Assembly (NCBI GenBank): GCA_963704125.1
Contig: CAVPHA010000021.1
Span: 514,857 to 578,856, forward strand
Length of the DNA stretch: 64,000 bases
Direction of reading: 5' to 3'
From: an uncultured Acidobacteriota bacterium
Lineage (GTDB): Bacteria; Acidobacteriota; Thermoanaerobaculia; Thermoanaerobaculales; Sulfomarinibacteraceae
The first letter of the stretch is position 1. Every line of letters begins with the position of its first letter. The notes beneath the pieces were generated by a model that had not been told where the DNA came from, did no database searches, and saw only the letters and a program-made list of their open reading frames with translations. Shown one piece after another: positions 4,247-60,717 of the stretch. Both the position numbers and the translations under genes were made by a program.

Positions 4247-6662
4247 CTAGAAGCGGAAAAGGGCTTCGAGCATGACCGTCCGTCGCGTGAGGTCGCCGAA
4301 GACATGCTGTTTCACGGGTTCGTCCAAGAGGTTGAGTACCTTCAGGTTGGTGGTCAGCCAGCCGTCCTTCCAGCGCCGACCGAAGCTTAAGCTCACCAGG
4401 GTGTAGGGATCGCTGTAGCCGTAGTAGAGGGGCTGCAGACCCTGGGCGAAGAACGCCTCGTCCGTGTGGTTGATGGTGAGGTTGCCGAGATAGGTCTGGC
4501 CGTTGTAGGTGGCGCCCACGTTGAACCGCTGGAGCGGCGGCGTGCTGATCGTCTGTGACTGTGGTCGGTAGGGGTCGCCGATCGGATCGAGCAGATCCGG
4601 CAAGGTCTGGTAGGAGTAGTTGCCGAAAATGGTCACGCCACGGCGAAAGGTATGGCTGATGGAGAGCTCGAGCCCGCTGTTGCGCATCGAACCGATGTTG
4701 AGGTACTGGGTGTTGGCCGGGAGGAAGATCCCCTGCAAAGCGAGAAAGTCGAGGACGATTGGGTTGAGCGGCCAGCCCGGGGGTGGGTTCTCGGAGGTGT
4801 AGTAGGGTTCGACTCCGGCGAGGATGAGCGCTTCCGGCGACGGCGAATACGAAATCGTGTCGTGGATCTCGTTGACGTAGAAGTTGGCGTCGAGCCTGGT
4901 CCGGCCGCCGCTCAGGACGGCCGAGTAGCCGAACTCGAGAGAGTCGATGGTCTCCGCCTTGAGATCCGGGTTGCCATAGTTGTTGACGATGAGGGGGAAC
5001 GGTTCCGTGACCCGTGGGTCGAAGTCGTTGAGGGGGATGTAGCCGCCGATGATCGAGAGTTCGAGGTAGTTTTCGACGGCCGATGGCGTTCGGAAAGCCC
5101 GGGCGGCCGAGAGCTTGAAGGAGTGGCCGGGAAAGTGCGTCCAGATCAGGGCGACGCGCGGCGAGAAGTTGATGTCGTCGAGGTTGGTGAAATAGTCGGC
5201 GCGGGCGGCAAGGGCGAGTTGGAACTCACCGAGATTGATCTCATCCTGGATATAGGCGCCGGTCTGGAACCGGTTGTCGGCCTCCTGGGCGATGGAGAGA
5301 TCGAAGGTGTTGTAGCGGAGGTTGCCCCCGAAGGAAAGGAGGTGCCTGCCACCGAAGAGATCGCTCCAACCGACATCGACGTCATAGACCCCGTTGGTGA
5401 AGTCGATGTTGAGAGGGTCGCCCTCGGCGTCGACGGAGATCAGGCTCGGCGCCTTGCCCTGGATGTAGTTGGCGAAGAGCTGGATCCTGAAGCTGCCGCG
5501 GTTGTAGCCGATCTGACCGTAGGCGAGGTTGGTTCCCGGTTGGGCGTCGAACGGTCCGATGGGGGTCTGGATGATGCCCTCGGTGAAGGCGATCCCGGCG
5601 GCGTAGAGGATCCGACCCTCGCCGGCGATTTCCTGATCGATCCGAAGATCGAACTTGGGCTGGACCGTGCCCCGGTTGTCGTAGGTGACGTTCTCGTACG
5701 AGCCGCCGCCGACGATCACCGGGAGGATCGATGGGTGTCGGGACCTCGGGGATGACGCCGGTGGGCCGTTCGAACGGATCGCTGGCATAGACCCCGGCGG
5801 AGAGCCGATAGGCGATCTTGTCGGTGGGCGCATCGGCCCAGCGGATGTTGAAGCTGCCCATGGCGCCGGTGCCGCCGGCCGCCTCGGATCGGCTGATGAG
5901 ACCGCCGACGACGGAAAACTCGAGCCCCTGCGAGGTGCGGGGCGCCCGGGTGACCATGTTGACCACCCCGGTGGCCGCGTTGGCGCCCCACATGGTCGAG
6001 GCGGGCCCACGGACCACCTCGATCTGCTCGATGTCGTTGGCCTGGACCGCGGCGAGATCCCAGAAGATCACGTTGAAGAAATCGAAATAGAGCGGTCGGC
6101 CGTCCACCAGTGCGAGTTGGCTGCCGGTGAGGAACGGGCTCGGGCCGCGGGTCGCGATGTTGACATCGCGGGCCGACGACTGGACGACGTTGGCGCCGGG
6201 AACCTCTCGAACGAGGTCGCCGATGTTCTGGGCCGCTCGGGTTTCGATGGTGTCGCGGCCGATGACGCTGATGGTCGTGGGGGTGTCCTCGAGCAGGACC
6301 TTTGTTCGTGAGGCCGAGACGACGACGGTCTCCTCGAAAGCGGGGTGCATCTGGAAGTCGATCTCGATGATCTCACCGGACGCCAGATCGACGGACTTTT
6401 CGATGGTGACGAATCCAGGCATGGCCACGGTGAGATCAAGTGTGCCGGGAGAGAGATTCACGGCTCTGAACCGACCGTCGACGGTGCTCAGGACCGAGCG
6501 GGTCGCCTGGCCCGCGATGGCGATGGTGACGCCGGGCAGCGGAAGATCGTTGAAATCGACAACCCGACCGAAGATCACGCCCGGTTCCTGGGCGGCGATC
6601 GGCGCGACGAAACTCATGATCAAAACAGCCACGAGGGCTGCTCGTGTGATAGCCCGCTTCAT
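4247..6662 (-). CDS. TonB-dependent receptor with N-terminal CarboxypepD_reg domain (frameshift near 5740)
   Basis: Signal peptide 'MKRAITRAALVAVLIMSFVAPIAAQ', a CarboxypepD_reg-like domain, a plug domain ('IEVVRGPASTMWGANA') and a beta-barrel ending in 'EALFRF'. Joined from ORFs 5382..6785 and 4247..6010. Confidence 0.85.
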
Positions 6663-17770: not shown

Positions 17771-17862
17771 CATGGCAGCCCGTGGCGGCGTCCGTGGCAG
17801 CGTCCGTGGCGGCGGCCTCGGTCACTGTTCAGGCAACGCGCCGTCGGGATCGGGATCGGGTC
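17771..17862. repeat. direct repeat H1 (12-mer 'ccgtggcNgcgN' units plus a unique tail)
   Basis: Aligns with 18528..18626 with 5 substitutions plus one fewer 12-mer unit. The two copies bracket the 4HB cassette. Confidence 0.85.
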
Positions 17863-18527
17863 CGGACTCGACCCAACAGCGGATTGAGGAATCGAGAGGT
17901 CGGCCGGGGAGGATTCGGTTTTCTTGGATCGAAGACCTTGGTTCTCCTGATGATTCAGGAGATACCTGTGCGACTCCTGTATGAATTGTCTGGGAGGGTT
18001 TTGCACCCTCCCGATGAGGTTATCGGGGTGAGGAAGGCTAAGGGTGGAGGAGACGCCAGGTCATGGCACGAACATCATCGAAGAGTTGGAGCGTGGTTTC
18101 GCTGCGGGACGGGTCGATTGCACCAGCCCCCATGAGGAGACGAAGATGAATGTCAACTTCCTTTGCTGACCCATACGCGATGCGGTATAGGTGCATGCGG
18201 TCTCTTCCAAAACGACCGGCGCCTTCGGCGAGATTCGCCGGTACCGAGGAAGCGGATCGAATCACCTGATCGGCGATGGGCTTGAGCGGAGCGGGCACCC
18301 GCATCACGAGGGAGATGGCGATGCCGGCTGCGGTGGTGGCTTTCTCGAGGGCGTAGAATCGGGTCGTTTGCTGTTGCTCGTGCATGGTTACCTCCGGGTT
18401 GTTCATGTCCTTCCCCCAGCCGCTGGGATGGCTCGTGTCAAGGGTCGCCTTCGAGGCGACTTGTCTTGCCCTTGACTCGAGCCATCCCAGCGGCTACACG
18501 CGCTTTCATGAACAACCCGGGGGTGAC
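17863..18527 (-). mobile_element. candidate four-helix-bundle gene cassette, copy 1 (mobility is hypothetical)
   Basis: Bounded by direct repeats H1/H2. Its internal modules (3' hairpins, gene, upstream palindrome) are shared with 59179..59798. Confidence 0.35.
18038..18406 (-). CDS. four-helix-bundle protein (TIGR02436 / 23S rRNA intervening-sequence protein family, Avd-like)
   Basis: 'QVIRSASSVPANLAEGAGRFGRDRMHLYRIAYGSAKEVDIHLRLL' is the family signature. SD 'gggggaagga' precedes the ATG. Confidence 0.85.
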   Translation of the reverse strand: MNNPEVTMHEQQQTTRFYALEKATTAAGIAISLVMRVPAPLKPIADQVIRSASSVPANLAEGAGRFGRDRMHLYRIAYGSAKEVDIHLRLLMGAGAIDPSRSETTLQLFDDVRAMTWRLLHP

Positions 18528-18530
18528 CAT
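18384..18530. promoter_or_regulatory. ~147-bp imperfect palindrome covering the 5' end and upstream region of 4HB copy 1
   Basis: Arms match 22/24 ('atggttacctccgggttgttcatg'), 18/18 ('agccgctgggatggctcg') and 8/8 ('gtcaaggg'). The core is 'tcgcc-ttcga-ggcga'. The proximal arm contains TTGACA. Confidence 0.6.
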
Positions 18531-18626
18531 GCCGTGGCAGCGACCGTGGCAGCGACCGTGGCAGCGACCGTGGCGGCGGCCTCGGTCACTGTTCAGGCAG
18601 CGCGCCGTCGGGATCGGGATCAGGTC
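18528..18626. repeat. direct repeat H2 (partner of H1)
   Basis: See H1. Confidence 0.85.
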
Positions 18627-18740
18627 GAGGCCGCGGATTCGGAAACGGCCGCGGCTACGGACTCGGATACGGTCACGGATACGGATACGGATACGGATAC
18701 GGAAACGGCCACGGCCACGGCTACGGTTTCGGACGTCGCC
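18627..18740. repeat. (NNNCGG)n hexamer-periodic tract
   Basis: 'gcggattcggaaacggccgcggctacggactcggatacggtcacggatacggatacggatacggatacggaaacggccacggccacggctacggtttcgg': CGG every 6 nt for ~19 units. Confidence 0.9.
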
Positions 18741-18741
18741 C

Positions 18742-19704
18742 CTAGCCCGCGGCCACCATCTCCCACACCGCGAGCCACACCGGCAGGCTGACGACGCACA
18801 GGATGTAACTCAGCAGCATGACGGCGCCGACCTTCTGCTCGTCGCCGCCGTAGGCTCGTACCTGGAGGATCAGGCCGACGGCGGGGGCCGAAGCGGCCTG
18901 CAGCACCAGGAACCGGGCGAGCAGCGGGTTGGTGGTTCCGATTTCGGTGAAAGAGAGCACTGCGACCGTGAGGGCCGGGAGCAGACCGTACTTCACCGTC
19001 ATGGCGCGGGCGGCGTCCCAAAGGTGGGGCCGGAGGCGCAGGCTCATGCCGCCGAGCATCGCGCCGAGGACCACGGTGGCCACCGGAACCGCCCCTTCGC
19101 CCACCAGCTCGACCGTCTCCAGCACCGGCGTCGGAATCAACCGACTCACCCCGGTCAAGACCAGAGCGATGGAGGAGAGGCAGGCGACGAGGGGCGGATT
19201 CGCGAACCCCCGCCAATCGGCCTGCCGCGGAGCGCCGTTGGTGGCGAGGAACTTGCCGAGGCTCCAGAGAATCGGGTTGAAACCGACGATGAAAAGCGAA
19301 ACATAGAGCGCGAACTCGTCGAACTGCCCGGGATAGAGCGCGGCGCCGATCGGCAGGACGAGGTAGCCCGCATTCTGCATGCTCGCGACGGCGAGCATGC
19401 TGCGTTTCGCGGGGAGTTCGCGGAAGAAGACAAGGGTGGCCAGGGCGAGCCCAACCAGGGTCATGGCGATGCTTGCCAACGGCAGGGTCCACCACAACGG
19501 AAACTCGGCCGGCGAGAGATTGGTCAGGATCTTGTCGAGGATCAAACAGGGGAGGAAGAGGACGATGGTCGCCTTGGTCAGGGCGGTCACCATGGCGTCC
19601 GTGAGGACCTTCCGCCGCACGAGGAAACCCGCCAGAAAGACCACCAGGAAGATCTTGAGAGTCGCGAGCAAGGTGGCTACGGCGGTGGTGGTGAAGGAGT
19701 CCAT
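18742..19704 (-). CDS. AEC-family (auxin efflux carrier-like) membrane transporter
   Basis: Intact 320 aa ORF, ~10 TM, two-repeat layout typical of PF03547. Confidence 0.75.
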   Translation of the reverse strand: MDSFTTTAVATLLATLKIFLVVFLAGFLVRRKVLTDAMVTALTKATIVLFLPCLILDKILTNLSPAEFPLWWTLPLASIAMTLVGLALATLVFFRELPAKRSMLAVASMQNAGYLVLPIGAALYPGQFDEFALYVSLFIVGFNPILWSLGKFLATNGAPRQADWRGFANPPLVACLSSIALVLTGVSRLIPTPVLETVELVGEGAVPVATVVLGAMLGGMSLRLRPHLWDAARAMTVKYGLLPALTVAVLSFTEIGTTNPLLARFLVLQAASAPAVGLILQVRAYGGDEQKVGAVMLLSYILCVVSLPVWLAVWEMVAAG

Positions 19705-19860
19705 GATGAACGGGGGTTATTGTAGCCCGATCGATTCTCCAAGATACCTGAACCCCGGCGCTGACAGGAGGTTGGCGACAGGACGCTTGGGTTGTGGTAA
19801 ACTGTATTGAAATCAGAAACTTATCGAATTTTTGGTACTGCTGTTCTGAGAAGGAGGAGT

Positions 19861-21408
19861 ATGCACCGCTACTTGAGTATGAGAAACCGAAACCACGGCC
19901 CCGGTTGGTTGTCGATTTTTGTTGTCGCGGCTGTACTGGCATGCCCGCTCGTCGTCAATTCGGCGGAGGTCGTTTATCTCGCTGAAGGTACTTCTGGTTC
20001 TTTTCTTGTCATGCAGTTGTACATCGTTGACACGGATAGCCCCCGCAACGCAACCAAGCTGAATGAAGAAGCCGGCTTTGCCAATGGAATCTGGCCGTTT
20101 GAAATCAGCCCTGACGGTCCGCGGGCTGTTTACGCGGGTGATCAGGACACTCCCGGCGACAGCGATCTGTATCTCGTCGAGATTGACCACCCCGGCGTCT
20201 CGCTGCGATTAGGGCAACTGACCAACATGCGTGAATCTCGGGGCGTATTCAGTCCAGACGGGACAAAGATCGCGTATGTGGCGTACGGCCAGGACTATTC
20301 GGGTCCGGATTTGTTTTTCGTCGATCTGGCCAATCCAGGTCAGACGACCCAACTGAATAGCACATTGCCGCAAGGTGGCTATGTAGATCGAGCTCGGTTG
20401 AGCTTTACGCCCAACAATAGATCGGTCGTTTATCTTGCCGACCAGGACGTCCAATTCAGGCGAGAATTGTATGTGGTGGATCTCGACAATCCCGGCCAGC
20501 CAAGGAAGCTCAACGGAGCTTTGCCAAACGACGGCAACGTCGACTCCCTGCACCCATTTCTGGTCACGCCGAACGGAACCGGAGTTGTGTACCGGGCCGA
20601 TCAGGACAAACGCGGGTTGCCGGAGTTGTATTTGGCTGACCTTAGTCATCCCGGCAATACCACCAAAATCAATCCGACTTTGGTGAGCAACGGCCAGACC
20701 TGGAGATTTGCTTTCATCAAGACCGGCACAGCGCTTGTCTATGGGGCGACCATCGGTGCGCAGGGTCGCGAGTTGTACCTGACCGAGTTCAATTCGCCGG
20801 GGACTGCCGTGAAACTGAGCGCGCCGTTGACCGGCAGTGAGTCCGAGGTTTGGTTGATTGGTCCGTCGCCGGACGGTGCAAGGGTCTACTACGCGACTCG
20901 TAATCCAGCTGGGAAGGTTCTCGGTCTGTATGTGATGGACTTGGCGAGCCCGGGCCGGGCCACGAGAATGACCCGGGGTTATGCCGGCTCCATCACCACC
21001 GACTGGCCTGTCTTAAGCCCGGATGGTCGGTACCTGGCGTTCACCGCGGAAGAGGCCGGTCTGAGTGAGGGCGTCTACGTGATCGACACGACGTCCCAGG
21101 ACTCCCCGTTCCGCCTTTCACCCCCGCATTCGAACAAGCTGCCGATCACCTACGAAGATTGGCTGAGGTGGAGTCCCGACAGTTCACAGGCGGTCTATTT
21201 GGCCTATGACGACGTGACCGGGGTGGTTGAGTTGTATCTATCAAACGTTGCGAATCCGGGCGTCTCGGAGCGGCTCAATGCGCCGTTGTCACCAGGCGCG
21301 TGGGTCGCTGTCCCCACGGACCTGCCGAGTTTCTCCTTCGTACCCGAGATCGGGTCGGGCCGCCAACCCCTCGTCAGATCCGGTGGTGACCGCCGATACC
21401 GACCGTGA
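19861..21408 (+). CDS. secreted TolB-like beta-propeller repeat protein
   Basis: SD 'aaggaggag' then ATG. Signal peptide. The motif 'SPDG../TPNG..VVY.ADQD....ELY..DL..PG' recurs about 8 times. Visibly lower GC than the neighbours and no frameshift. Confidence 0.6.
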   Translation: MHRYLSMRNRNHGPGWLSIFVVAAVLACPLVVNSAEVVYLAEGTSGSFLVMQLYIVDTDSPRNATKLNEEAGFANGIWPFEISPDGPRAVYAGDQDTPGDSDLYLVEIDHPGVSLRLGQLTNMRESRGVFSPDGTKIAYVAYGQDYSGPDLFFVDLANPGQTTQLNSTLPQGGYVDRARLSFTPNNRSVVYLADQDVQFRRELYVVDLDNPGQPRKLNGALPNDGNVDSLHPFLVTPNGTGVVYRADQDKRGLPELYLADLSHPGNTTKINPTLVSNGQTWRFAFIKTGTALVYGATIGAQGRELYLTEFNSPGTAVKLSAPLTGSESEVWLIGPSPDGARVYYATRNPAGKVLGLYVMDLASPGRATRMTRGYAGSITTDWPVLSPDGRYLAFTAEEAGLSEGVYVIDTTSQDSPFRLSPPHSNKLPITYEDWLRWSPDSSQAVYLAYDDVTGVVELYLSNVANPGVSERLNAPLSPGAWVAVPTDLPSFSFVPEIGSGRQPLVRSGGDRRYRP

Positions 21409-21463
21409 CCGGCGCCGACCCTCAGAGCTGAGAGAGCCATCGGCGGAACCAGAAACGAGAAAA

Positions 21464-21494
21464 GCCGCCCAACGGGCGGCGATTTCGATGTTCC
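21464..21494 (+). terminator. stem-loop terminator after the propeller gene
   Basis: 'gccgccc-aac-gggcggc' followed by the T-rich 'gatttcgatgttcc'. Confidence 0.45.
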
Positions 21495-21570
21495 TGGTGG
21501 AGCCGAAGGGGATCGAACCCTCGACTTCAGCATTGCGAACGCTGCGCTCTCCCAACTGAGCTACGGCCCC
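21495..21570 (-). tRNA. tRNA-Ala (anticodon CGC), CCA encoded
   Basis: The reverse complement folds as a cloverleaf: acceptor GGGGCCG/CGGCUCC with the G3:U70 Ala identity pair, D-arm GCUC/GAGC, anticodon loop UUCGCAA, T-arm GAGGGUUCGAUCCCC. Length 76 nt. Confidence 0.95.
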
Positions 21571-40240: not shown

Positions 40241-40270
40241 GCGGCTGCGGTCTCGGTCTCGGTTACGGGA
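40241..40270. repeat. short (NNNCGG)n tract 5' of R1
   Basis: 'gcggctgcggtctcggtctcggttacggg'. Confidence 0.7.
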
Positions 40271-40277
40271 CCCGCAG

Positions 40278-40546
40278 CACCGGCCTTCCGGGACGCTGTG
40301 ACGCGATGGCGTCCCAGCGCCCCAGCGTCGCACCATCGGCGTGGTCGCTCCTGGGATGATTGGGGGGCTGCGACCACGCCGATGGTACGCCGGCGGCCTC
40401 CCTCTGAGCCGGGAGAGCAGACCGCATCGCGCCTCCCGGGGGAGCCCGGTATGACATTGTGCGGGGCGTGACGCGGTGCCGGGAGGTCGATCGGGCACAA
40501 TGTCATACCCCGACATCCCGAGGAGGGCGGATCCTGCGTGCCCGGT
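40278..40546. repeat. R element copy 1 (solo): ~270-nt hairpin-rich repeat, candidate structured RNA or DNA element
   Basis: Helix A 40333..40347/40371..40385 (15-16 bp perfect). Helix B 40448..40462/40495..40509 (15 bp perfect). Homologous to 43859.., 44713.., 58904.. and 59799... Confidence 0.85.
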
Positions 40547-40599: not shown

Positions 40600-40768
40600 G
40601 GTCGTTCATTGACACGGCTTGCTCTCTTAACGTCTGACGAAAAGTGTGAATAGCTTGACACAAAATCTGATAACAACGTACTAAAAATATTGATTTCTGA
40701 GACTTGACAATTAATCACGCAGGTATTACATTGTGCTTGCGTGTGAAATTGATAAGGAGGTACTCAAA
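40600..40768 (+). promoter_or_regulatory. AT-rich hsp20 upstream region with three TTGACA boxes
   Basis: TTGACA at 40609, 40655 and 40704. Possible -10 boxes are TACTAA (40679) and TACATT (40727). SD 'aaggagg' lies 7 nt before the ATG. Confidence 0.4.
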
Positions 40769-43811: not shown

Positions 43812-43858
43812 CCGTGGAGTGTAGCGTACGCGCGGTGCGGGTCACCGGTTTCTCGCAA

Positions 43859-44085
43859 CACCGGCCTTCTGGGCGCTGGGACGCTCTGGCGCAGCGCCCC
43901 AGCGTCGCCCCATCGGCGTGGTCGCTCGGGTGGTGGATTTGAGGGGCTGCGACCACGCCGATGGGACGCCGGCGGCTCCTTCGTTGGGAGAGCCAGGCGA
44001 GGCGCGTCCGGAGCCCGGACGCCAGGCGCAGCTGTCGCGTTGCCGGTGGGTGGACTGGCACCGGCCCGGCACCCGAGGGAGGTCC
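43859..44085. repeat. R element copy 2 (divergent; long helix B lost)
   Basis: Shares 'caccggccttctggg...ccccagcgtcgccccatcggcgtggtcg...cgaccacgccgatggg acgccggcgg' with the other copies. Confidence 0.7.
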
Positions 44086-44112
44086 TTTCCCGCGTGACCT
44101 CGAGGATTGATT

Positions 44113-44479
44113 CGGATGCAGCAGCCGCCAGGTCATCGCGCGGACGTCGTCGAAGAGTTGGATTGCGGTTGTGGCCCGTGTGGCATCGACGGCGTTTGCT
44201 TCAGCGAGGAGACGCAGGTGGGTGTCGACCTCTTTCGCTGAGCCGTAGGCGATGCGCCAGTGGTGCATGCGGTGGCGGCCTGATCGGCCGTGACCTTCGG
44301 AGAGATTGGCGGGCACCGACGAAGCGGAACGAATCACCTGATCGGCGAGACTCTTCAGAGGAGCCGGCACCCGTAAGACGAGAGCGATTGCGCATGCCGG
44401 CGGCTTCGAGAGCTTTGTGGTGGGCGATGAGGCCGGTGGATGGTAGGGCGTTGCGCATGATCACCTCCTGGTTGTTCAT
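44113..44479 (-). pseudogene. four-helix-bundle protein, copy 2 (one frameshift near 44395; stop codon missing, reads through R2)
   Basis: 'MNNQEVIM...' then '...PAPLKSLADQVIRSASSVPANLSEGHGRSGRHRMHHWRIAYGSAKEVDTHLRLL...AMTWRLLHP' with no stop until 43804. Confidence 0.6.
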
Positions 44480-44482
44480 GCC

Positions 44483-44570
44483 CCCTCCACCAGCCGCTGA
44501 AATGGCCGAGGTCAAGGGTCGCCGTCGAGGGCGATGCATTCGCTCTTGACCCTTGACATCGGCCACGTCT
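44483..44570. promoter_or_regulatory. palindrome upstream of 4HB copy 2
   Basis: 'agccgctgaaatggccgaggtcaaggg-tcgccgtcgagggcga-...-ccttgacatcggcca': same design as at 18418.. and 59740... Confidence 0.5.
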
Positions 44571-44712
44571 CTAGAGCGGCAGGACGTGCGTGAACATCGG
44601 GTCAGGAGACCACACCGGACGCTGACCGCGGCCCGCTGACGCTGTCGCCTGCGCAGTTGTCTGCCGCAGTCCCGGACGCTGTCCCGGAGACTGCCCCTGC
44701 GGTTTCCCGCAT

Positions 44713-44974
44713 CACCGGCCTTCTGGGACGATGGAACGCGGTGGCTTCCCATCGCCCCAGCGTCGCCCGAGCAGCGTGGTCGTTTAGGTGGAGAATTTGA
44801 GGGCTTCGACCACGCTGCTCGGGCGCCGGCGGCCTGCCTCTGAGCCGGGAGAAAAGACCGCATCGTGCCTCCCGGGGGAGCCCGGTATGACATTGTGCGG
44901 GAGGCACCGCGGTGCCGGGAGGTCGATGGGGCACAATGTCAAACCCACGCCCGAGGGAGGCTCCAGTCCCTCGG
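44713..44974. repeat. R element copy 3
   Basis: Helix A 44766..44782/44807..44823 (17 bp perfect, three compensated pairs versus R1). Helix B 'ggtatgacattgtgc/gcacaatgtcaaacc'. Confidence 0.85.
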
Positions 44975-44980
44975 ACCCGG

Positions 44981-45080
44981 AGCGGCCTCGGTTTCGGTTG
45001 CCGGATGCTGATGCTGCCGCTGTCCCGGACGCTGTCCCGGACGCTGCCGCTGCCGCTGTCGCTGTCGCGGCGGTGCCGCT
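44981..45080. repeat. 6-/12-mer periodic tract 3' of R3
   Basis: '...cggtttcggttgccggatgctgatgctgccgct(gtcccggacgct)2gccgctgccgctgtcgctgtcgcggcgg'. Confidence 0.8.
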
Positions 45081-58513: not shown

Positions 58514-58560
58514 GGGGGCCGAGCGCCGCCCGGTGAACCGCGAGGGGCAAGGACTCAAGG

Positions 58561-58630
58561 ACATCACACCATCGCAGCGTCGCAAACGCGAAGGCGCAAA
58601 GACGCAAAGCGGTCGCGAAGGCATCGCGGT
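58561..58630. repeat. 8-mer tandem repeats of the 'ATCACACC / GTCGCAAA / CGCAAAGA' family
   Basis: 'acatcacaccatcgcagcgtcgcaaacgcgaaggcgcaaagacgcaaagcggtcgcgaaggcatcgcgg'. Related strings occur at 37844.., 42227.. and 47403... Confidence 0.75.
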
Positions 58631-58815
58631 TGAGAGTGGGCGAGGTGCAGATTGATGGTGCTGGGAGTGGTTTGGCGGCCAGGTTCTCAGGACTGTAGGC
58701 GGGGCCTTCAGGCCCCGCGACCCTCCCGCTGACGTTCGGTGTGGCGATTCGGCGGCTCTTCGCTTCGAGGGTCGTGACGATGTTCGGGTCGGCGGGGCGG
58801 TTGACGGCGTGGGTT

Positions 58816-58890
58816 GCGGATTCGGCCTCGGCCTCGGTCACGGCTACGGACGCGGACTTCGGTCTCGGCCTCGGTTACGGTTTCGGTTCT
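58816..58890. repeat. (NNNCGG)n tract 5' of R4
   Basis: 'gcggattcggcctcggcctcggtcacggctacggacgcggacttcggtctcggcctcggttacggtttcggtt'. Confidence 0.9.
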
Positions 58891-58903
58891 TGATTCTCTC
58901 GTC

Positions 58904-59178
58904 TCCGGCCTTCTGGGGCGCTTGGACGCCCTGGCGTCCAAGCGCCCCAGCGTCGCACCATCGGCGTGGTCGTGCATGGGTGGATTGGAGGGCGGCGACC
59001 ACGCCGATGGCGCGCCGGCGGCCTACCTCTGCGCCGGAACAGAAGACCGCATCGCGCTTCCCGGGGAGTGCCCGGCACGCAATTGTGCGCGGCGTGCCGC
59101 GGTGCCGGATGGTTGATGGGGCACAATTACGTGCACGTCCCAATGAACGCGGATTCCGCGTGCCCTGGTCGGCATCGG
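58904..59178. repeat. R element copy 4
   Basis: First hairpin 'tggggcgcttggacgc/gcgtccaagcgcccca'. Helix A 'accatcggcgtggtcg/cgaccacgccgatgg'. Helix B 59075..59088/59121..59134. Positions 58946..59178 are duplicated at 59799..60139. Confidence 0.9.
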
Positions 59179-59798
59179 TCCGGAAATGGAGGCGGAGTGA
59201 TCCCAACTGGGAATTGAGGAATCGAGAAGTCAGCCGACAACCCACGGATTTCGTTGGATCGAAGACGTGACCCTCCTGATGACTCAGGAGATACCTGTGC
59301 ATTTCCGGTATGGGTTGTAGGGGAGGGTTTACACCCTCCCGATGCGATCCTAACCATGGAGAAGCCGCCAGGTCATGGCGCGGACGTCGTCGAAGAGCTG
59401 GAGCGAGGTATCGGTACGCGGAGCGTCGATTGCACCTGCGCCGACGAGGAGTCGCAGGTGGGTGTCGACCTCCTTGGCCGAACCGTAGGCGATGCGGCAA
59501 TGGTGAATGCGGTCTCTTCCTGACCGTCCAGCACCTTCGGCGATATTGGCAGGAACCGATGAGGCGGAGCGAATCACCTGATCTGCAATGGGTTTGAGTG
59601 GTGCTGGAACCCGCATGACGAGGGAGATCGCGATGCCGGCTGCGGTGGTCGCTTTCTCAAGGGCGTCGAATCGGGTCAGTTGCTGTTCGTCGTGCATGGT
59701 CACCTCCGGGTTGTTCATGCACTCCCAACCAGCCGCTGAGATGACCCATGTCAAGGGTCGCCTCCGAGGCGATTCGTCATGCCCTTGACATGGGTCAT
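59179..59798 (-). mobile_element. candidate four-helix-bundle gene cassette, copy 3 (mobility is hypothetical)
   Basis: Lies exactly between the duplicated R segments. Shares 'attgaggaatcgaga...', hairpin 'tctcctga..tcaggaga', hairpin 'gggagggtttacaccctccc', the gene and the upstream palindrome with copy 1. Confidence 0.35.
59350..59718 (-). CDS. four-helix-bundle protein (TIGR02436 / 23S-IVS protein family, Avd-like), copy 3
   Basis: 'MNNPEVTMHDEQQ...QVIRSASSVPANIAEGAGRSGRDRIHHCRIAYGSAKEVDTHLRLL...AMTWRLLHG'. SD 'gggag'. Very similar by eye to copy 1. Confidence 0.85.
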   Translation of the reverse strand: MNNPEVTMHDEQQLTRFDALEKATTAAGIAISLVMRVPAPLKPIADQVIRSASSVPANIAEGAGRSGRDRIHHCRIAYGSAKEVDTHLRLLVGAGAIDAPRTDTSLQLFDDVRAMTWRLLHG

Positions 59799-59799
59799 C
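59740..59799. promoter_or_regulatory. palindrome upstream of 4HB copy 3
   Basis: 'gatgacccatgtcaaggg-tcgcctccgaggcga-ttcgtcatg-cccttgacatgggtcatc': 18-bp perfect arms. TTGACA lies in the gene-proximal arm. Confidence 0.6.
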
Positions 59800-60139
59800 C
59801 CAGCGTCGCACCATCGGCGTGGTCGTGCATGGGTGGTTGCTAGTGCGCCTTGCGCACCGCGACCCACCCTCGCCTGGCTGCGGTCAGAGCCGTCCTCGCT
59901 TCGCGACGACGGCCTGACTCGCTCGCCAGCCGAGCGCGGGTTGGAAGGGCGGCGACCACGCCGATGGCGCGCCGGCGGCCTACCTCTGCGCCGGGAACAG
60001 AAGACCGCATCGCGCTTCCCGTGGAGTGCCCGGCAACGCAATTGTGCGCAGCGCGCAGCGGTGCCGGATGGCTGATGAGGCACAATTACGTGCCCACGTC
60101 CCAATGAACGCGGATTCCGCGTGCCCTGGTCGGGATCGG
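59799..60139. repeat. R element copy 5 (lacks the first hairpin; carries a ~104-bp insertion in the helix-A loop, 59837..59940)
   Basis: Aligns with 58946..59178 with about 9 substitutions and 4 small indels by eye, plus the insertion. Confidence 0.9.
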
Positions 60140-60218
60140 GCACGGATTCGGAGGAGGCGACGGCCACGGCCACGGATACGGAAACGGTCGCGGATTCGGA
60201 TACGGAAACGGCCCCGGT
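60140..60218. repeat. (NNNCGG)n tract 3' of R5
   Basis: 'cacggattcggaggaggcgacggccacggccacggatacggaaacggtcgcggattcggatacggaaacggccccgg'. Confidence 0.9.
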
Positions 60219-60241
60219 ATGATATCCCCCGGGATGGATAC

Positions 60242-60717
60242 ATGAACGACGAAGCCCTCACCAAACTCTTTACCCGGATTCACGATCAGCTCGCCGAGCT
60301 CATTGCCAAGACCGATGACCCCGGTGGCCCACCGGGCGACGGCGGTCGCGTTGCTCCACCACAAGGTGCCCGGGGTCTCATGGACCGGTTTCTACATGCT
60401 CCGGGGCGATGATCTCGTGGTCGAGGCCTATCAGGGGCCGGTCGCGTGTCTCGTGCTCGAGCGTCACGTCGGCGTGTGCTGGGCGGGGGTCGATCGCAAC
60501 GAGACCCTCGTGGTGGACGATGTCGAGGCCTTCCCCGGCCACATCGCCTGCGAGATCGCGGAGTCGCTCCGAAGTCGTGGTACCGATGCGTGAGGCCGGT
60601 GGCGGGATCGTGGGCGTGCTCGACGTCGACTCGCATCATGCGAACCACTTCAGCGAGACCCACCGCAGCGGCTACGAGACCATCGTCCGCCTCCTCGAAG
60701 AGCGCTGGCGGGGCTGA
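60242..60717 (+). CDS. GAF-domain protein, free methionine-(R)-sulfoxide reductase-like (frameshifts near 60310 and 60575)
   Basis: '[32 protein letters not shown]...[13 protein letters not shown]' then 'EVVVPM...IVGVLDVDS'. Fragments lie in ORFs 60026.., 60303.. and 60409... Confidence 0.7.

Follow-up and report, generated by a model that had tools for sequence, protein, structure and literature searches.

The argS-GAF spacer of the 64,000-nt stretch of DNA analyzed here (hereafter, the window) is a repeat island of a Thermoanaerobaculales-type acidobacterium and is composed of independent reusable modules: hexamer tracts (T), a hairpin-built element (R), a tail module (Q), a 104-nt module (ins104), and a cassette (C) that carries a gene for a four-helix-bundle (4HB) protein. 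R is an independent, abundant, interspersed intergenic element of ~275 nt that occurs in high copy number across genomes of this lineage and is not part of the 4HB cassette, and the two R copies that flank the gene, R4 and R5, are members of a genome-wide family and not ends made by the insertion of the gene. On balance, and with moderate confidence, we favor an overall explanation in which the locus is a mosaic of modules with R as an independent member, the repeats recombine with one another, and the R4/R5 pair is a local by-product.

Our profile searches and ORF translation mapped the 4HB gene (PF05635/TIGR02436) to 59350..59718 on the minus strand, in agreement with the original prediction of a TIGR02436-type gene at this position. 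The ORF at 59353-59718 scored 60.2 bits against PF05635 (Pfam cut-off, 33.8) and 63.4 bits against TIGR02436 (NCBIfam cut-off, 24), and the 4HB genes of two further sites in the window (sites 1 and 2) likewise scored above the cut-offs of both families. The true start of the gene is likely the ATG at 59697, which has a GGAGG ribosome-binding site upstream; the ORF would then span 59350..59697. Proteins of this family have a four-helix-bundle fold and form a pentameric barrel, and those of the Avd and 23S intervening sequence (IVS) type are very common and frequently present in multiple copies; to our knowledge, neither a function nor a mode of gene movement has been established for them outside diversity-generating retroelements (DGRs). 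The nearest and sole solved structure retrieved by sequence for the 4HB protein was 2gsc (XCC0516; E=9e-5). The protein carries an RxxxSxxxNxxE motif (IRSASSVPANIAEG), and in DQVIRSASSVPANIAEG the R, S, N, and E residues are correctly spaced, with Q replacing the leading G of the GxxRxxxSxxxNxxE motif that is conserved in the four-helix-bundle (23S IVS protein, Avd) family (PMC3936711). A search with PADLOC yielded no match for the 4HB proteins, and a defense-system reading of the gene was dropped.

The 4HB cassette consists of a leader hairpin of ~145 nt, which pairs the ribosome-binding site and the start codon, followed by the 4HB ORF. The intact leader hairpin at site 1 had a computed folding energy of -114.5 kcal/mol (z=-12.2). 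In the argS-GAF spacer, the leader (59698..59805, minus strand) contains the inner hairpin, with arms at 59734-59757 and 59782-59805, and the outer arm able to pair with the ribosome-binding site and AUG is absent. As read from the sequence, the 5' arm of this leader shares with R the junction heptamer CCCAGCG (59799..59805), which is CGCTGGG on the sense strand. Q is a 170-nt tail module located between the 4HB stop codon and R4 (59179..59349, minus strand), and it is 78% identical to 17863-18016 of the window; in the related locus L153 it lies between a pair of inverted R copies with no 4HB gene, and it is also present in L204.

R4 is a full-length R copy at 58896..59178 (nhmmer, E=1e-86) with its structure-bearing strand on the minus strand, that is, the 4HB-sense strand. 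Its true start lies about 50 nt before position 58946, from which the repeat had originally been drawn, and that part is absent from R5. R5 (59799..60139, minus strand) is missing ~50 nt from the end of the structured strand, which hold the closing stem and the invariant CCAGAAGGCCGG. It is interrupted in the loop of the long hairpin of R by ins104 (59836..59939), a separate 104-nt repeat module that recurs in related loci with an identity of 100% in L154, 99% in L208, and 87-92% in L005, L084, L151, and L200. When 58946..59178 was aligned with 59799..60139, the first 38 nt were the same, the 104-nt insertion in R5 (59836-59939) came next, and the remaining 202 nt were 93.6% identical (E=3e-84). 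The differences comprised 10 substitutions and 3 small indels (1, 1, and 2 nt, with the extra bases all in R5), which corresponds well to the roughly 13 small differences and the 104-bp insertion of the original prediction. That the duplication is an artefact of assembly is extremely unlikely. The assembly seems to carry indel errors, since two +1 indels set the adjacent GAF gene apart from its orthologues; however, R4 and R5 differ by 10 substitutions, the 104-nt insert, and the 50-nt truncation, the independent assembly of L204 holds R-Q-4HB at the same site, and similar sandwiches occur on independent contigs. The identity of R4 and R5 was 95.4%, whereas adjacent R pairs had a median identity of 78%. 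For R pairs on one contig, the medians were 78% (adjacent) and 80% (non-adjacent), and homogenization of adjacent copies as a rule was rejected on this basis. The 95%-identical R4/R5 pair would represent an unusual recent local event, a by-product of recombination among repeats.

The predicted multi-helix fold of R is conserved on one strand, the 4HB-sense strand. In an alignment of 48 diverse copies, 97.0% of the cells of 55 pairs were paired and 24 pairs showed compensatory change; none of 500 shuffles reached the observed values, and slid controls gave 31-58% pairing. The z score of the R4 fold was -6.4. On the 4HB-sense strand, G·U pairs outnumbered A·C pairs by 180 to 5, and within the hairpins that can form on either strand the ratio was 90 to 5; one U·G pair was invariant. 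This strand test was settled with 48 copies and not with 9. As judged from these pair counts, the asymmetry fits the use of R as single-stranded DNA as well as RNA. We weighed the doubtful alternative that R acts at the DNA level, in the manner of REP/BIME or attC elements: one of its strands would fold as single-stranded DNA and serve as the substrate of a HUH (RAYT-like) enzyme or tyrosine recombinase encoded in trans, which would cut and join it, with the 4HB ORF as a passenger. The strand-specific excess of G·T over A·C is also expected of hairpins read as single-stranded DNA, the many copies are intergenic and form mosaics with other small motifs, discrete subfamilies co-exist with linked compensatory changes (helix 5 is CCATCGG in 28 copies and CGAGCAG in 17), and the invariant unpaired motifs AGGCCGCCGGCG and CCAGAAGGCCGG could be protein recognition sites. 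However, neither REP units nor attC sites come near the size of R, which has 275 nt, several helices, and a closing stem, and no candidate enzyme gene was found in the ~1.1 Mb around R copies. The distance from the 4HB stop codon to R is also variable (about 5-40 nt, or 170-260 nt where Q intervenes), which argues against a precise recombination point. Furthermore, in all 17 cases in which they adjoin, R and the 4HB gene were convergent in the R(+) convention, with R starting shortly after the stop codon or beyond Q. The mRNA strand is in every case the structured strand of R; this constancy is more simply explained by co-transcription.

The distribution of R bears out its independence from the 4HB gene. 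One conserved 29-nt core pattern of R matched at least 120 metagenome contigs, and a 4HB gene was present on only 24 contigs among the matches listed. In the 684 kb of contigs among the matches listed, nhmmer detected 167 R matches; among these listed matches, only 17 of the 108 near-full copies adjoined a 4HB gene, and the other 91 had none nearby. The window itself contains five copies in 64 kb. R is intergenic, with neighboring genes in all four orientation combinations, and because solo copies showed no bias for sites downstream of co-oriented genes, it is not simply a 3' UTR element. The copies adjacent to 4HB genes clustered only weakly (35% versus 13% expected, p about 0.04), and orthologous contigs account for part of this clustering; their treatment as a separate subfamily was rejected. 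Our Rfam scans assigned R to no known RNA family: a gathering-threshold scan of the whole window against Rfam 15 returned tRNA only, and an E-value scan of 58600-60300 returned only a chance miRNA match (E=1.1). In the ~1.1 Mb of related loci, no enzyme family, including RT, RAYT-like, integrase, and transposase families, recurred beside R or the 4HB cassette.

Three other sites in the window contain members of the same module set. Site 1 (17780..18740, minus strand) is composed of T (18627-18740), X (18544-18626), the leader hairpin (18383-18531), a 4HB gene (18038-18385/18406), Q (17863-18037), and X' (17780-17862), where X and X' are tract-like repeats of 83 nt with 5 mismatches. Site 2 (43853..44990, minus strand) is composed of a partial R (43853-44100), a 4HB pseudogene (~44110-44478), a hairpin (44490-44566), a 12-mer tract (44661-44700), and a full R (44706-44990). 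The original prediction had assigned to 17771..18626 and 43859..44974 the same layout as at the argS-GAF site; direct repeats do flank both, but those of site 1 are X and not R, and at site 2 the gene is frameshifted and the left R, a partial copy, has only 72% identity to the right R. The third is a solo R site (40242..40546, minus strand), where a short T tract (40242-40268) is followed by R (40271-40546), confirming the lone R placed at 40278..40546. The flanking repeats differ from site to site in both sequence and length (83 nt of X, ~233 nt of R, and a partial R).

The presence of flanking direct repeats at all three cassette sites of the window raises the possibility that such repeats are made by, or needed for, insertion of the cassette, through a long target duplication, obligatory Campbell integration, or an LTR-like terminal redundancy left when more than one unit of a circular or tandem donor is copied, with solo R as the remnant after cassette loss. 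We consider this unlikely. R4 and R5 are 95% identical, the end of R5 and the start of the leader meet at one heptamer, as expected for a circle or tandem junction, X/X' (83 nt, 94% identical) is not in L208/L209 and so entered with the cassette, and further R-4HB-R sandwiches were found in L003, L026, L093, and L114. However, long flanking repeats were present at just 4 of 40 related 4HB loci, and the preferential flanking of 4HB genes by direct repeats that the original prediction implied does not hold among the relatives. The paired R copies of the other sandwiches show 67-82% identity and resemble each other no more than unlinked copies do; 91 of the 108 near-full R copies among the matches listed have no 4HB gene nearby; and repeat length and identity vary by site. 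Inspection showed no terminal inverted repeats, and no linked transposase recurred beside the cassettes in the related loci. A transposon or LTR-type element was rejected on similar grounds, namely, flanking repeats that vary by site and are lacking from 36 of the 40 related cassettes, and no linked enzyme in the ~1.1 Mb of related loci. R is a far more numerous and independent family, and a reading of it as the LTR of the cassette, with a solo R as a solo-LTR, is not supported.

Comparison of orthologous loci revealed both the empty sites and the solo repeats that the original prediction had proposed to look for. The argS-GAF spacer, which is 1728 nt in the window, is empty (45-57 nt) in three relatives (L202, L205, and L207), contains only a tract in L201, contains only R in L203 and L206, and contains R-Q-4HB in the closest relative, L204. 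The short tract of L201 is located at the same place as the tract at 60125..60220 of the window, where L207 has a seed of 2-3 units. At site 1, where the flanks of the relatives are locally 97-100% identical to those of the window, L208 and L209 have T-R-spacer-T in place of the 4HB module, and the left breakpoint falls inside the tract. The X/X' duplication is missing from both of these loci; therefore, it arrived with the cassette. No synteny was detected between the window flanks and 80 genome loci. Of the LTR/solo-LTR, Campbell, or cassette insertion originally envisaged, the 4HB unit as a cassette that is gained and lost is upheld by the argS-GAF states and the site 1 swap, and a Campbell-type event fits this one locus; R as an LTR is not supported by the counts given above (17/108 near-full copies beside a 4HB gene among the matches listed, 4/40 loci flanked, and sandwiches of 67-82% identity).

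In the explanation that we favor, the modules would spread and be swapped by host recombination between repeats, without an element-encoded enzyme. Recombination among repeats fits R4/R5 best, possibly through integration of an excised circle, and a two-step route would be the most economical. A segment bounded by the CGCTGGG of the leader and the one close to the end of R would first be excised as a circle, which would then recombine with a resident solo R at the argS-GAF site. This would leave R5 and the leader both truncated and fused to each other, with 4HB, Q, and a full-length R4 after them; ins104 would have entered R5 later or come from the resident copy. The R5/leader junction is the common heptamer CGCTGGG, at which the truncated R5 and the truncated leader are fused, and relatives (L203 and L206) hold a solo R at the argS-GAF site. 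Against this route, it depends on a single 7-nt junction, and R truncations in the wider set are not clustered at the heptamer, which was rejected as a general R breakpoint. The site 1 polymorphism could reflect allelic replacement and not movement between loci, and the X/X' duplication, having come with the cassette, looks more like an insertion-linked duplication.

The T tracts are (NNNCGG)n microsatellites of period 6, and they lie outside both R copies as originally described, one at about 58793..58893 with one phase shift and the other at about 60125..60220, directly upstream of the TATGAT box of the GAF gene; the (NNNCGG)n repeats span 58793-58886 and 60131-60217. A period-6 tract was located within 80 nt of 30% of R copies versus 3.9% of random windows (7.6-fold enrichment), and in 14 of 42 relatives a tract abutted the leader hairpin. 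The tracts have no constant orientation with respect to R. The tracts of the window share exact matches of only 8-17 nt, a poor substrate for RecA-type exchange between different loci, and exchange through tract homology was judged a weak candidate. Two coding readings of the tracts were also rejected: the Gly-X repeat suggested by the codon-like xxC-GGx pattern has a G-X frame without a start codon, and the mirrored start in the outer hairpin arm enters the tract in frames that differ by locus, giving (HG)n, (RP)n, (VP)n, or PG.

The tracts also bear on a retroelement-type reading, in which the 4HB gene and R would form a module like Avd and its template/spacer RNA, with an RT encoded elsewhere, R spreading via RNA, and the tracts arising as by-products of priming or reiterative copying. 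This is very unlikely. The 4HB protein is in the Avd family, R has an RNA-type strand asymmetry and subfamily structure, R5 is truncated with microhomology at its junction, the tracts adjoin R and the cassette leader, and the avd genes of DGRs precede a structured RNA that Avd binds (bioRxiv 10.1101/2023.10.23.563531). However, RT was not among the families recurring beside R or the cassettes in the related loci, and the R4/R5 substitutions are not adenine-specific (A is in R5 for 4, in R4 for 1, and in neither for 5). In addition, a variable repeat inside a gene is absent, tract orientation relative to R is inconstant, and tracts are found where R is absent (L201) and appear to expand in situ (L207). 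With no RT adjacent to the locus either, the Avd/DGR hint in the original prediction lost its footing.

In the explanation that we favor, the 4HB mRNA would carry R as a structured 3' region, and the Avd-family 4HB protein would bind such RNA stem-loops, as Avd contacts a stem-loop in the DGR RNA (bioRxiv 10.1101/2023.10.23.563531). A bolder and decidedly unlikely proposal casts R as the nucleic acid to which stand-alone Avd/IVS-type 4HB proteins are dedicated. The 4HB gene, its leader hairpin, and R RNA would then form a minimal selfish module, which would spread as RNA or in a single-stranded form with the help of a polymerase or recombinase encoded in trans, and the (CCGNNN)n tracts would serve as its landing pads or arise as its by-products. 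If this were true, the lineage would show, still free-living, the kind of element that gave rise to 23S rRNA intervening sequences and to the accessory half of DGRs. Our analysis offers a concrete, testable pairing of a 4HB gene, with a predicted translation-blocking leader hairpin, and a same-strand structured element of ~275 nt that is itself widely scattered. The presence and absence states at the same chromosomal sites provide direct material on how 4HB cassettes come and go, and R, taken apart from the 4HB gene, constitutes a large and well-supported family of structured repeats that has no match in Rfam.

Among known systems, R resembles REP/BIME, ERIC, and Correia-type MITEs in its high copy number, its strictly intergenic location, its construction from hairpins, its occurrence singly or in tandem in variable mosaics with short motifs, and its lack of a gene of its own. 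REP units are 20-40 nt in length and have an associated RAYT gene. R shares with REP/BIME the abundant intergenic palindromic units in mosaics; however, it is ~275 nt in length, and no RAYT-like family was found among the ORF families that recur in the related loci. R further differs from these elements in its multi-helix fold closed by a long-range stem, its invariant unpaired motifs, its strong one-strand G·U bias, and its regular joining to a protein-coding cassette and period-6 microsatellites; neither terminal inverted repeats nor short target duplications were seen, and no RAYT or transposase was linked in the ~1.1 Mb of related loci.

Like the 23S rRNA IVSs of Leptospira and Coxiella (S23p), the 4HB cassette is a small, sporadic element with a PF05635 protein and a long, stable stem. 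Mobility of the IVSs has long been suspected and may depend on the ORF (PMC4990558). However, the 4HB cassette is not located in an rRNA gene, its stem lies upstream of the ORF and hides the ribosome-binding site whereas the IVS stem encloses the ORF, and it is associated with R and hexamer tracts. The IVS reading was rejected, given that the window contains no rRNA (tRNA only by Rfam) and that the hairpin is wholly upstream of the ORF.

The locus resembles the accessory module of DGRs (avd, then the TR-Spacer RNA) in that an Avd-family gene is followed by a structured non-coding segment on the same strand, and the direct repeats on both sides of the 4HB gene recall the VR-avd-TR order. It differs in that no RT is adjacent, no coding variable repeat is present, the differences are not adenine-specific, and very many R copies have no gene. 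The DGR reading was rejected: the flanking genes are argS and GAF, the substitutions are mixed, R4 and R5 are non-coding hairpin arrays, and no RT-like family recurred in the ~1.1 Mb of related loci.

In comparison with integron cassettes (an ORF with a folded attC), R is conserved in sequence and far longer than attC, most R copies are without an ORF, and the junction distances vary; neither IntI nor attI recurred beside R or 4HB cassettes in the ~1.1 Mb of related loci. The locus nevertheless resembles an integron cassette in that a promoter-poor small ORF is followed by a strand-specific structured element and is present or absent at a fixed site, and a circular intermediate, another integron-like trait, would be plausible for the 4HB cassette.

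The gene at 59350..59718 (minus strand; site 3, in the spacer between argS and a GAF-domain gene) proved to be a clear member of the PF05635/TIGR02436 four-helix-bundle (4HB) family, with a likely start at the ATG at 59697, which is preceded by GGAGG. The flanking segments R4 (58946-59178) and R5 (59799-60139), both copies of a structured repeat of ~275 nt (R), form a direct pair as originally predicted: their first 38 nt are identical, a 104-nt insertion follows in R5, and the 202 nt after it align at 93.6% (E=3e-84). Against an estimate of about 13 small differences plus the insertion, we counted 10 substitutions and three 1-2-nt indels plus the 104 nt, and (NNNCGG)n tracts were seen outside both copies. 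R4 in fact starts at 58896, and the corresponding ~50 nt are absent from R5. An assembly duplication, the artefact considered in the original prediction, was rejected because the copies differ too much; R, the tail and the 4HB gene also occupy the same site in L204, a separately assembled close relative. A gene between repeats was likewise recovered at sites 1 (17780..18740) and 2 (43853..44990), with two corrections: the site-1 repeats (17780-17862 and 18544-18626; X and X') are not R, and the site-2 gene (~44110-44478) is a frameshifted pseudogene, whose N-terminal part is out of frame with the rest and which has lost its stop codon.

To the right of the island, two +1 insertions, one of them within a C/G run, divide the GAF-domain gene (60242-60717) among three frames when it is compared with intact 157-aa orthologues. 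This leaves two readings, a pseudogene or indel errors of a long-read assembly. The source assembly may contain such errors, and a simple GC3-based gene call over positions 1-64000, which gave many gaps and short neighbouring ORFs, is consistent with frequent frameshifts. The single tRNA in the window is a tRNA-Ala (21495-21570).

R is an independent, abundant element. Long direct repeats, expected to flank 4HB genes regularly, were present in only 4 of the 40 closest relatives, which come from Thermoanaerobaculales and other Acidobacteriota MAGs. A 29-nt pattern from the conserved R core matched at least 120 metagenome contigs (684 kb), in which a profile search found 167 matches and only 24 contigs carried a 4HB gene; many of these counts derive from contigs picked for R content. 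Some contigs hold three copies within 12-14 kb, and the window holds five in 64 kb, a density that would extrapolate to hundreds per genome. R is almost always intergenic, between genes in all four orientation combinations, and across ~1.1 Mb of related loci 4HB was the only protein family to recur close to R or the cassettes. Tandem amplification occurs at L004 (4616-6155), where R, a short tract and a 130-nt spacer make up a 459-nt unit present in 3.4 copies that are 97% identical; after these, at 6329-6575, come 2.6 copies of a 96-nt tandem repeat. Past the solo R of the window (40271-40546), an AT-rich sequence containing several TTGACA motifs (40600-40750) closely resembles that after the R of L156, so this solo R seems conserved at an orthologous locus.

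Alignment on the 4HB-sense strand of 48 R copies with pairwise identities below 86% yielded a consensus fold of 55 pairs in 7 helices; hairpins of 14 and 21 bp and a closing GGCC/GGCC stem are among its parts. Pairing was kept in 97.0% of cells, with compensatory change in 24 pairs (200 cells); none of 500 shuffles reached these values, and slid controls gave 31-58% pairing. G·U outnumbered A·C by 180 to 5 on this strand, and by 90 to 5 inside hairpins able to form on either strand; one U·G pair was invariant. This excess and the invariant U·G argue that R is constrained as a single strand running the same way as the 4HB mRNA, be it RNA or single-stranded DNA. The motifs AGGCCGCCGGCG, GCGACGCUGG and CCAGAAGGCCGG are unpaired and invariant, subfamilies marked by linked compensatory changes co-exist, and the core motifs are present in otherwise dissimilar repeats flanking or following 4HB genes at L026 and L014. 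No Rfam match was found that would place R in a characterised family. A further hairpin repeat (…gtgcctggca…ttcgccgcgaa…gtgcctggc…) adjoins R at L094, L117, L159, L174, L185 and L190, and partial tandem copies of the first R hairpin (…caccggggcgtgccgg…) occur at L096, L103, L131 and L169.

When the three cassettes of the window were aligned with the relatives nearest to them, the conserved unit was seen to open with a long hairpin that covers the 4HB translation start: its 3' arm holds the ribosome-binding site and the AUG, which the outer 5' arm mirrors. The complete site-1 leader has a predicted fold of -114.5 kcal/mol (z=-12.2). Downstream of the 4HB stop, R follows at once or after a tail of 170-260 nt (Q). 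The relative orientation is fixed: in 17 of 17 adjacent cases the structured strand of R is the 4HB strand, and R begins ~5-40 nt past the stop or past Q.

Of 42 related loci, 14 have a period-6 tract (CCGNNN on the gene strand) adjoining the leader hairpin. The mirrored RBS/ATG creates an opposite-strand start codon reading into the tract, for example MPTPLTTLTP(HG)27 at L004 3668-3860 (minus); such starts also occur in L003, L005, L014 and the window (18466-18740), in frames that vary by locus. A coding role was considered, but the tracts are probably non-coding: no start codon opens the frame in which codon usage is good, and the mirrored start enters the tract in locus-dependent frames.

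The island is modular in composition. Of the R copies, 30% have a period-6 tract within 80 nt, versus 3.9% of random windows, and the tracts vary in orientation relative to R. Q occurs without a 4HB gene in L153, between two inverted R copies. The R5 insert (ins104; 59836-59939) is a separate repeat family: it is 100% identical in L154 (1983-2086), although the R around it matches at just ~80%, and 99% identical in L208 (5341-5444). Identity is 87-92% in four more loci, among them L005 (3563-3667) and L200 (2-106 and 172-276), with two occurrences lying outside R altogether. This near-identity within a diverged R points to very recent spread or to strong constraint. GGTTG stands at both junctions in R5.

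Comparison of orthologous loci bore out the expected empty sites and solo repeats; presence and absence are polymorphic. The argS-GAF spacer is empty in L202, L205 and L207 (57, 48 and 45 nt, respectively), holds a short tract ahead of the same TATGAT box in L201 (163 nt) and tract-R-tract in L206 (699 nt), and reaches 1728 nt with the full island in the window. L203 has a solo R, its contig ending before the GAF gene, and L204 (91% ArgS identity) has R-Q-4HB, its contig ending inside the 4HB gene. Just past the argS stop, a short kept stretch (58540-58590; gaaccgcgaggggc...atcacaccatcgcagcgtcgc) resembles L204 3830-3870, where the argS flank joins an R truncated at CCCAGCG, the heptamer (CGCTGGG on the sense strand) at which R5 also ends; it may be a remnant of an older insertion. 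At site 1 (permease-DUF2520), L208 and L209 have tract-R-spacer-tract versus tract-X-4HB-Q-X' in the window, with the left breakpoint within the tract and L208 flanks 97-100% identical over ~300 and ~190 nt. X is absent from L208 and L209, and the X/X' duplication therefore came in with the cassette. The L208 contig is a mosaic, ~89% identical to the window overall; identity between L208 2251-5053 and window 18652-21464 swings from 75% to 99% per 150-nt step, which suggests inter-lineage recombination or a chimeric metagenome contig.

R-4HB-R sandwiches occur at L093, L114, L145 and L003, as well as at sites 2 and 3 of the window. In the other sandwiches the paired R copies share just 67-82% identity, which does not exceed that between unlinked copies. 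R4 and R5, at 95.4%, are therefore unusual, and only recently amplified arrays compare with them. The site-3 leader lacks its outer hairpin arm and starts with CGCTGGG, the heptamer that ends R5; R5, without its fold end, is joined to the leader there. R4 is full-length, and in relatives a solo R occupies the site. A circle excised from the leader CGCTGGG to the R CGCTGGG, then recombining with a resident R, would explain both truncations, the junction and the complete R4 by one event. Alternatively, in two steps, an older R-tract-cassette-Q-R arrangement could have suffered a deletion at a 7-bp microhomology and conversion of one R copy by the other. Either route may have produced the pair, the circle being the more economical. 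CGCTGGG was also considered as a general R breakpoint, which the wider R set did not bear out.

The 4HB mRNA would run into R, and the 4HB protein would bind stem-loops of R-bearing RNA, by analogy with the contact that Avd makes with a stem-loop in DGR RNA (bioRxiv 10.1101/2023.10.23.563531). The leader hairpin would hold read-through transcripts untranslated, a control that would be lost at site 3, and the modules would move through host recombination or an enzyme encoded elsewhere. Full-text literature searches returned no description of the 4HB-R arrangement; one earlier paper noted 4HB genes lodged within cas operons. Tests of the features that define DGRs, 23S rRNA intervening sequences, LTR elements or transposons and Rfam families were negative, and the LTR/solo-LTR-like reading was abandoned, R being independent and abundant. 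No integrase, as an integron would have, recurred near the modules in the ~1.1 Mb of related loci. DGRs have in common with the island the order of gene then structured RNA. The 23S rRNA intervening sequences, long suspected to be mobile (PMC4990558), share the protein family and are likewise small, sporadically present elements that have a long stem. Bacterial interspersed mosaic repeats are the system most alike in working, although the island is set apart from them by the size and fold of R, by the constraint on one strand of R and by having a protein-coding cassette attached.
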